NCBI GenBank assembly: GCA_018396535.1
Contig: JAGTQC010000001.1
Coordinates: 1-64,000 of the forward strand
Length of the DNA stretch: 64,000 nucleotides
DNA from: Candidatus Bathyarchaeota archaeon
GTDB lineage: Archaea > Thermoproteota > CALKCG01 > B24 > DRYS01
Direction: 5' to 3'
Positions 39,789 to 40,279 of this stretch are shown here, in pieces (the stretch's first letter is position 1; the number at the start of each line of letters is the position of its first letter). The translations under genes and the position numbers were made by a program. The notes under the pieces were generated by a model, which was not told the DNA's origin, did not search any database, and was given only the letters and a program-made list of their open reading frames with translations.

Positions 39789-39946
39789 CTATATACATTT
39801 TTGTGTTAATATATCGAATCCATCTTCTTTTTACCTCTTCAATACAACTATATAGGATCCCATGATACAACTACAGTTTTCTATACCCGATACACTAAAA
39901 ACATTTCCAACAGACTTAAATCCTCTCACCACCTTAGATAAAAATC

Positions 39947-40279
39947 GCCGGTCGACGGGCGGTACCCCGTTACATCTCTATAGGTTTCTATAGGGATGTA
40001 ACGGTGGATAATACAACGGTAAACAGCCTCCTCCCCCCGGAGGAAGGGGGTCTACCGGGGGGGACCCCCTCCTGGGAGACTGTTTACCGTTGTATTATCC
40101 ACCGTTACATCCCTATAGAAACCTATAGAGATGTAAATCTGAATACCCCTAGGTCCCCCGCCTAGGAGTATTCAGAGGAAGGGGATGCTTGCAATTAACC
40201 GTAGGCTCCGTAACCGGAGCCGAAGGTTGATTGTAAGCCATGGAGGAAACTCCTACCGCCCGATAAACGGCATCCCTTC
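39947..40279 (+). ncRNA. unclassified ~330-nt highly structured non-coding element (candidate ncRNA)
   Basis: 5'/3' closing helix, 57-bp rod, two long hairpins, GAAA tetraloop hairpin; GC-rich; TATA-like TTAAAT at 39916-39921. Confidence 0.6.
39970..40136. repeat. perfect 57-bp inverted repeat (39970-40026 / 40080-40136) with 53-nt spacer
   Basis: Base-by-base reverse complement verified. Confidence 0.97.

Follow-up and report, generated by a model that had tools for sequence, protein, structure and literature searches.

What does a heat-loving archaeon make from a GC-rich stretch of DNA that folds, as RNA, almost from end to end? The stretch lies at about 39914 to 40279 of the window, by which we mean the first 64,000 nucleotides (nt) of contig JAGTQC010000001.1 (Candidatus Bathyarchaeota archaeon, assembly GCA_018396535.1), directly behind the fbp gene. 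The original prediction, made from the sequence of the window, took it for a novel large non-coding RNA (ncRNA) or a folded non-autonomous element. We consider it probable that the locus is a stand-alone plus-strand gene for an abundant circular RNA of 310 nt, made by the tRNA-splicing machinery, and that this RNA is the local, remodelled form of a class-wide family. The host is a thermophilic archaeon of hot springs; nearly all DNA matches to the stretch come from hot-spring metagenomes. In GTDB, the class of the organism consists of its order and holds 16 species. The stretch had also been called free of open reading frames (ORFs), which holds to the extent that chance frames of 43 and 53 amino acids (aa) alone cross it; there is no larger frame.

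G000 denotes the genome under study and G001 and G002 the two other species of its genus, g1; families f1-f4 and genera g1, g3 and g5 are divisions of the class. In the genome, of 1.41 Mb and 93% complete, there is one copy of the element, whose sole further match is its own inverted arm. Among 40 relatives searched by BLAST, only the two other species of the genus carry homologues (identities of 78% and 75%). Two further variants came from scans of public contigs for exact words, giving five distinct homologous sequences, including L028 and L029, to which the covariation and pairing counts for the g1 element refer.

A bulge-helix-bulge motif at the ends of the element

How would a ring arise from this locus? 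The original prediction closed the element with a helix (39947-39964 with 40254-40271), and the pairing is there, but the 5x5 "internal loop" between its 4-bp and 9-bp stems conceals a feature that was missed. The ends refold without loss into a canonical 3-4-3 bulge-helix-bulge (BHB) motif, as defined in PMC4731332. A central helix of exactly 4 bp lies between two bulges of 3 nt, one on either strand and each placed 3' of its central strand, and is flanked by an outer helix, H1 (4 bp, GCCG/CGGC), and an inner helix, H2' (7 bp, GGCGGUA/UACCGCC). The parts of the putative precursor are as follows.

39904..39921, plus strand: promoter block TTTCCAACAGACTTAAAT, invariant in five of five homologues while both flanks vary.
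39916-39921, plus strand: TATA-like hexamer TTAAAT, part of the TTTCCAACAGACTTAAAT block.
39947..39950, plus strand: 5' strand of H1, GCCG; pairs with 40268-40271, in the precursor only.
39951..39954, plus strand: 5' strand of the central helix, GUCG; pairs with CGAU at 40261-40264 over 4 bp.
39955..39957, plus strand: bulge 1, ACG; predicted cut at 39956/39957 by the cbf5-intron rule given below; the back-join seen in RNA lands on 39957.
39957..40266, plus strand: predicted mature circular RNA of 310 nt, from BHB geometry, back-join and RNA depth.
39958..39964, plus strand: 5' strand of H2', GGCGGUA; pairs with 40254-40260 over 7 bp, with 97% of cells paired and two compensatory pairs.
40261..40271, plus strand: 3' side of the BHB (CGAU 40261-40264, bulge AAA 40265-40267, outer strand CGGC 40268-40271), with a predicted cut at 40266|40267; near-match of the 3' block in f2.
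40272..40290, plus strand: pyrimidine- and T-rich trailer, likely the termination zone; T-rich tracts also follow the BHB in homologues (TTTTT in G004, a long T run in G008), and RNA depth is 0.

The promoter-like signal and the pyrimidine tract had been pointed out before, and both are in place: TTAAAT stands 26 nt ahead of G39947, and the tract follows 40271. The promoter word has a near copy at G000:C8, but this falls within an ORF of 774 aa and was set aside as a chance match.

The central helix is 100% paired in the five g1 sequences. It is kept in 12 of the 14 full-length members of the wider family described below, with one mismatch each in G003 and G009; among the 14, its last pair is variously G-C, G.U or A-U. 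H1 covaries across the class (GUG/CAC, UUG/CAA, UUG/CGA, UCG/CGA, GCCG/CGGU, UGCCG/CGGCA and GCGCCG/CGGCGC). The BHB register also removes an A.C mismatch that the simple closing-helix model leaves in L028 and L029.

A positive control is found in the same window. The cbf5 gene carries a 34-nt BHB intron (62867-62900) inside its GHGGTL|DPAVTG motif, and the bulges of this intron, AGA and AUA, sit 3' of the central strands CCCU and GGGG, in the same geometry as those of the element. With a cut behind the second base of each bulge, the conserved GHGGTL|DPAVTG frame is restored. Applied to the element, the rule therefore predicts an excised RNA from G39957 to A40266, 310 nt in length. The "exons" left behind, of about 10 and 20 nt, are unconserved and have no fold of their own, and the excised part would therefore be the product.

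The genome encodes RtcB (PF01139, 596 bits; C7:165752-167059) and two EndA paralogues (PF01974, 100.7 and 85.8 bits), whose genes lie at G000:C2:6489-6728 and C1:182466-182720. The presence of two paralogues would point to an endonuclease of the two-subunit type, the type with the widest substrate range (PMC4731332).

We regard the following biogenesis as well supported, with EndA and RtcB as the presumed enzymes and the ring as the presumed end product. The TATA-type promoter at 39904-39921 would give rise to a short precursor starting at about 39945-39947, whose ends would pair into the BHB (H1 GCCG/CGGC, central helix GUCG/CGAU, bulges ACG and AAA). The tRNA-splicing endonuclease would cut behind the second base of each bulge, and RtcB would then ligate A40266 to G39957, yielding a covalently closed RNA of 310 nt.

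RNA evidence for an abundant, putatively joined product

Is such an RNA made? One public metatranscriptome (X14) bears on this; it consists of assembled contigs from a mixed community, aligned at 80% likeness and stemming from a related strain. Summed depth is 4,000-42,000 in the bins covering 39951-40278, apart from a bin at the rod tip (40033-40073) that has no cover. On fbp it is about 20, and it falls to 0 both in bins 39869-39950 and from 40279 onwards. In summed depth the RNA gene thus exceeds the neighbouring mRNA by a factor of hundreds to thousands.

The same data hold a back-join, at depth 69, that leads from 40263 through GAA to 39957. The predicted joint reads ...CGA-UAA|GGGCGG... 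and the observed one ...CGA-GAA-GGGCGG..., a difference of one base (40264); the landing base 39957 and the three extra letters are exactly as predicted for an A40266|G39957 joint. Because contigs break at inverted repeats, neither the gap at the rod tip nor a second RNA run without alignment (X19) was used as evidence.

Fold, covariation and strand

The fold lies far beyond chance. The minimum free energy of 39947-40271 on the plus strand is -227.4 kcal/mol, compared with -117.7 +/- 6.2 for dinucleotide shuffles (z = -17.8). Since the element is a near-palindrome, the minus strand folds as well (z = -16.2). Across the five homologues 95.1% of cells are paired, and 35 of 134 pairs are compensatory, as against 2-7 after the partner had been shifted by 1-3 columns; none of 500 shuffles reached the observed covariation value. 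A comparison of three sequences gave 33 compensatory pairs out of 132. The covariation among syntenic homologues that the original prediction proposed as a check is thus present.

Which strand is the RNA? G-U cells outnumber A-C cells 19:2 outside the rod and tip, and 14:0 within the hairpin at 40185-40241, an excess that argues for plus-strand RNA, as had been suggested. Inside the rod the two are nearly balanced (19:13). Two C.A mismatches, 40147.40167 and 40027.40079, are kept in five of five sequences and would read as G-U on the minus strand; everything else that bears on the strand favours the plus strand.

The structural elements of the original prediction are all present. They form the arms of the predicted ring, all on the plus strand.

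39965..39968 with 40181-40184, plus strand: helix CCCC/GGGG, 100% paired, with one C-G to U-A exchange.
39970..40136, plus strand: rod of 57 bp plus five more pairs and a G/C-rich tip (40033-40073); 62 pairs, 23 compensatory, 93.8% of cells paired. The uninterrupted 57-bp duplex is 39970-40026 with 40080-40136.
40138..40176, plus strand: 16-bp hairpin with the invariant loop UCCCCCG and one conserved C.A mismatch; seven of 15 pairs compensatory.
40185..40241, plus strand: hairpin with a symmetric GUA/GAA internal loop, G-U pairs and a 4-nt loop; 97.5-100% paired, with 14 G-U and no A-C cells.
40242..40253, plus strand: GGAG-GAAA-CUCC hairpin with a GNRA loop; stem invariant, loop GGAA in G002.

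In the predicted ring, ligation would cap H2' with a 7-nt loop, CGAUAAG. H2', the CCCC/GGGG helix, the hairpin 40185-40241 and the GNRA hairpin meet in a four-way junction without an unpaired base, the CCCC/GGGG arm enclosing the rod and the 16-bp hairpin. The stem top and loop of the latter are invariant in the five sequences.

The rod arms consist of internally duplicated units (GUUACAUCYC), and local hairpins, two plus a central one, are possible for this reason. The rod is more stable than these hairpins by 36 kcal/mol at 37 C and by 26 kcal/mol at 75 C. In the rod (39970-40005 and 40103-40136), the only changes that the inner arm shows from species to species are A/G exchanges facing U in the invariant outer arm GUUACAUCUC, so that in every species the local hairpin is possible besides the far more stable rod. 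At 75 C the rod tip prefers the pairing AGGA-GGGGGUC/GACCCCC-UCCU. An H-type pseudoknot that would combine this pairing with that of CCCCCCGG and CCGGGGGG is sterically ruled out, with loops of 0, 2 and 0 nt, and the two tip pairings are therefore alternatives. Only the AGGA-GGGGGUC/GACCCCC-UCCU pairing covaries, weakly, with 81% of cells paired.

A class-wide family

Is the element peculiar to its genus? A covariance model of its 3' domain (R1) has no match outside g1. The gene order in g1 is fbp (+), RNA (+), a gene for an 86-aa winged helix-turn-helix (wHTH) protein (-) and a 343-aa gene (+), and the same order is present in f1 and f3. In f3, a different structured RNA occupies the gap between the fbp and wHTH genes; 23 of its 102 pairs are compensatory, and it is framed by GUG-GUCA-AAA-GGUAGCG ... 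CGCUACC-UGAC-AAA-CAC. A second 3'-domain model (R2) matches eight of eight genomes in f3, three of three in f2 and one of two in f4, where the RNA of the missed genome sits at the end of a contig. R2 found nothing convincing in 134 further genomes of the phylum.

All 14 full-length members possess a BHB with covarying outer and central helices, and their predicted rings measure 265-427 nt. In all 15 members with an assembled 5' end, a TT(T/A)AA(A/T) hexamer ends 24-32 nt before the central BHB helix. By these sequence features, each of the 16 genomes of the class appears to carry a version of the BHB RNA gene.

How does the g1 RNA relate to this family? It shares with the other families the slot, the promoter spacing, the BHB, H2' and the terminal hairpin; its GNRA hairpin aligns with the GGGAGG...CCUCUCCC hairpin that lies ahead of the 3' strand of H2' in the other families. 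Its last 22 nt nearly match those of G003 (f2), the 3' blocks being CUCC-UACCGCC-CGAU-AAA-CGGC in g1 and CUCCCC-ACCGCC-CGAU-AAC-CGGGC in G003. With default filters, R2 gave no hit on G000-G002 at E <= 1, and a second copy of the class-wide RNA was not found in the g1 genomes. From position and termini, not from model score, we infer that the element is the orthologue of the class-wide RNA with an interior rebuilt in this lineage.

The arms have expanded in different ways: g1 has the 57-bp rod and g3 a long G/C tip, f2 carries three hairpins of the type CCUUGGRRAAC, and f4 has GUAA hairpins of 28 nt in tandem. The f4 modules lie at L076:1585-1700, L080:1-155 and L094:490-625 (minus strand). They are alike within a species, their stems covary between the two species, and both assemblies break or hold Ns there. 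In both f4 genomes the fbp gene is read as three successive pieces that lie in different frames (G005:C114:27623-28779, G008:C24:2933-4087), which could reflect frameshifts or mRNA introns.

Neighbouring genes

The closest neighbour of the RNA gene is that of the wHTH protein.

40330..40590, minus strand: gene for an 86-aa basic winged-helix protein (Pfam TrmB/HTH_5), convergent with the RNA gene.

A single-copy orthologue is found in all 16 genomes, and 14 of these have it tail-to-tail with, and within tens of bases of, the RNA gene. This pairing holds in f4 and in G003 even though fbp is there on a different contig from the RNA gene; genus g5 alone has the two genes apart. A word-index protein search with the wHTH sequence returned close homologues only, and the wider protein family comprises 226 clusters at E <= 0.001. 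At three places that were looked up, distant wHTH homologues had no such RNA beside them, one having a tRNA gene instead, and the link between wHTH gene and RNA therefore holds inside the class only. In structural comparison, the wHTH model came closest to a Z-alpha domain (E = 3e-4), with MarR and AspA ranking next; we take the fold to be that of a generic winged helix and do not count the match towards RNA binding. The conserved neighbourhood suggests the protein as a candidate partner or regulator of the RNA.

Beyond it, the 343-aa gene (40678-41709) and a 353-aa gene (41728-42789) are adjacent paralogues. Their family bears a faint likeness to Pol-beta nucleotidyltransferases; genomes of the order have about five members each, which often occur in pairs. 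For the 343-aa protein, NCBIfam and Pfam gave no curated match beyond the faint Pol-beta nucleotidyltransferase hit. Directly upstream of fbp lies a DHH/DHHA1 phosphoesterase gene (start region 37621-37720); in the called ORF, Pfam detects the DHHA1 part only.

Alternative identities and readings

Could the element be a known RNA in disguise? Rfam searches of the window and four sister loci, at gathering and relaxed thresholds, gave only noise from microRNA-like hairpins. Such models match any long hairpin. The reading as a novel large plus-strand ncRNA was supported as far as it went, with no Rfam family, an invariant promoter, covariation, the G-U bias and very high RNA depth in its favour; it was incomplete in that it overlooked the BHB, the circularisation and the class-wide family. 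The original prediction had weighed and set aside signal recognition particle (SRP) RNA and RNase P RNA, and rightly so. The canonical SRP RNA gene (RF01857) is found at G000:C2:17154-17470 with 178 bits, on contig 2 of G000, and no SRP model matches the locus. The 5S rRNA gene lies on G000:C10, and 5S rRNA was found in 15 of the 16 genomes. For RNase P RNA the best local hit is 10.6 bits, to the bacterial class B model. The archaeal model (RF00373) found none in the G000 and G001 assemblies, probably owing to an assembly gap; in the congener G002, a canonical RNase P RNA (193 bits) exists alongside the element. A search with RF02357 had no match in any control genome, and hence is uninformative. 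The idea of a strongly diverged or permuted form of SRP RNA, RNase P RNA or 5S rRNA, for which the size of the element and the missing archaeal RNase P RNA of G000 and G001 might speak, is therefore scarcely credible: it is refuted for SRP RNA and 5S rRNA by the genes elsewhere, and for RNase P RNA it is opposed by the coexistence in G002 and the low local score.

The other half of the original prediction, a folded non-autonomous element, is not supported. It had proposed that multiple copies would mark the element as mobile; a miniature inverted-repeat transposable element (MITE) or other mobile element should occur in several copies at varying sites, and the element was found once, at a syntenic site fixed in all relatives. 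In a broader form, the locus might be a selfish or decaying sequence, such as a hostless intron-like BHB cassette, a MITE-like palindrome or a protein-bound DNA inverted repeat, whose RNA has no role of its own. The rod is indeed a near-perfect DNA palindrome with arms of duplicated units, its G-U and A-C cells are nearly balanced, the interior differs strongly among the families, and tandem modules expand in f2 and f4. Yet a single copy at a fixed site across the class, an invariant promoter, extreme RNA abundance and strong purifying covariation reaching beyond the rod make this very unlikely, and the unconserved "exons" argue that there is no host transcript.

What weighs against a spliced ring descended from a class-wide RNA? 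The circular joint is a single contig-level join (depth 69) from one metatranscriptome of a related strain at 80% likeness. It requires U40264 to be G, which none of the five DNA homologues shares, and a join A40263|G39954 with C39956 changed to A is equally parsimonious, although it would fall inside the central helix and does not fit EndA. From the X14 contigs one can read neither strand nor true ends, nor the proportion of circular and linear molecules. As for descent, R2 with its filters off scores 15.4, 9.9 and 8.9 bits at the g1 loci, collinear with the 3' domain, and the motifs invariant in the other families (UCUAAAGUCGAAAG and GAGUAGAUAG) are missing from the g1 RNA. The wHTH protein was drawn in by gene neighbourhood and has the fold of a generic DNA-binding winged helix, and so is to be taken as a lead only.

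These points leave some room for an ordinary linear structured small RNA whose BHB-like ends go unused, the back-join being an artefact or coming from another organism of the mixed community. The simple closing helix of 4 bp plus 9 bp fits the G000 sequence too, and there is but one join, with one mismatched base. The join nevertheless falls on the predicted bond at 39957 with three extra letters that give the predicted length, and RNA depth is 0 in the bin that contains the 5' strand of H1. The BHB is kept in 14 of 14 full-length homologues despite 25-60% sequence change, H1 covaries although this helix would otherwise be without purpose, the BHB register accounts for the A.C "mismatch" in L028 and L029, and the genome is rich in BHB substrates, with an EndA that would be of the broad-specificity, two-subunit kind. 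We therefore judge the linear reading quite unlikely. Also unlikely, in our view, is that the ring is a processing intermediate only and the functional form a linear RNA, re-opened and circularly permuted, whose new ends would lie elsewhere, perhaps at the rod tip. There is precedent in the circular archaeal pre-rRNAs formed from BHB motifs, which are re-linearised, some 23S rRNAs ending up permuted (PMC7758197, PMC12918454), and the X14 contigs cannot separate circular from opened molecules. On the other side, the BHB joint is the sole join or end reported in X14, the SRP RNA of Thermoproteus stays circular (PMC4731332), and through the joint a 7-nt loop comes to cap a 7-bp stem, a structure that looks finished. 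The spliced ring thus remains our preferred reading.

Possible function and significance

What might such a ring do? Our guess, a tentative one and on balance doubtful, is that it serves as an exonuclease-proof, heat-stable scaffold or sponge for a protein, with the wHTH protein as the first candidate partner. In a more specific and more speculative form, to which we give rather little weight, ring and 86-aa protein would make up a class-specific, abundant circular RNA-protein particle whose variable arms act as multivalent platforms that sequester or organise a cellular factor. In g1 the platform would be the 57-bp rod, in f4 the arrays of tandem GUAA hairpins and in f2 the CCUUGGRRAAC hairpin repeats. 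If this is true, the particle would be an archaeal, circular counterpart of sponge and scaffold RNAs.

The ring, if confirmed, would make the tRNA-splicing machinery also a dedicated maturation route for a class of stand-alone ncRNAs, and it would place an abundant archaeal RNA or RNA-protein particle at the disposal of further study. It would also offer a natural, hyperstable and heat-proof circular scaffold with easily expanded modular arms, of relevance to engineered circular RNAs.

Comparison with known systems

Archaeal circular RNAs that depend on a BHB are known as by-products, as with introns, or as intermediates, as with pre-rRNA. To our knowledge, the repair of a permuted universal RNA by way of a BHB ring is known once, for the SRP RNA of Thermoproteus. 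The locus described here would be a gene whose only conserved product is the ring, with its own promoter, and it is kept in every genome of the class. In the literature searched in full text, a stand-alone BHB ring of this kind was not described; the classes met there were introns, pre-rRNA, C/D small RNAs, omega RNAs and the Thermoproteus SRP RNA.

The last of these is a close parallel. In Thermoproteus tenax and T. uzoniensis, the SRP RNA comes from a free-standing gene with a TATA box and a BHB, is cleaved by EndA and yields a circular product (Plagens et al. 2015, PMC4731332). As in the element, the TATA box lies about 26 nt upstream and a short leader and trailer pair into the BHB, and cleavage by an endonuclease of the two-subunit type followed by ligation, for which RtcB is proposed, is expected to give a stable ring of about 300 nt (PMC4731332). 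The Thermoproteus RNA differs in being a permuted universal RNA with SRP19 and SRP54 as partners, its permutation repaired by circularisation (PMC4731332), whereas the element matches no family, has no recognisable permutation and coexists with a normal SRP RNA.

Archaeal circular pre-16S and pre-23S rRNAs resemble the element in that a BHB forms from the flanks of a structured RNA of very high abundance, and in that they are excised and circularised by EndA plus a ligase, as predicted here. They are parts of an rRNA operon and are mostly re-opened in maturation; the element, in contrast, would be a monocistronic 310-nt RNA with almost no flanks and has no similarity to rRNA. Stable circular tRNA and rRNA introns of archaea, and the tRNA intronic circular RNAs (tricRNAs) of metazoans, have the 3-4-3 motif in common with the element and, by prediction, the enzymes and the cleavage rule. 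Unlike the element they lie inside a functional host gene, and there it is the exons that are the selected product.

The counterpart of the element in the sister genera is a 265-nt BHB RNA, encoded between fbp and a convergent ArsR-like wHTH gene. It has the same slot, TATA spacing and BHB, together with a similar H2' and 3' terminal hairpin. The interior has been rebuilt in the element, where UCUAAAGUCGAAAG, GAGUAGAUAG and the two-hairpin arm are absent and the 57-bp rod with its G/C tip and the 16-bp hairpin take the place of the sister RNA's interior. The rebuilt interior of g1 and the conserved interior of the sisters amount to a natural experiment on which parts of the RNA are needed.

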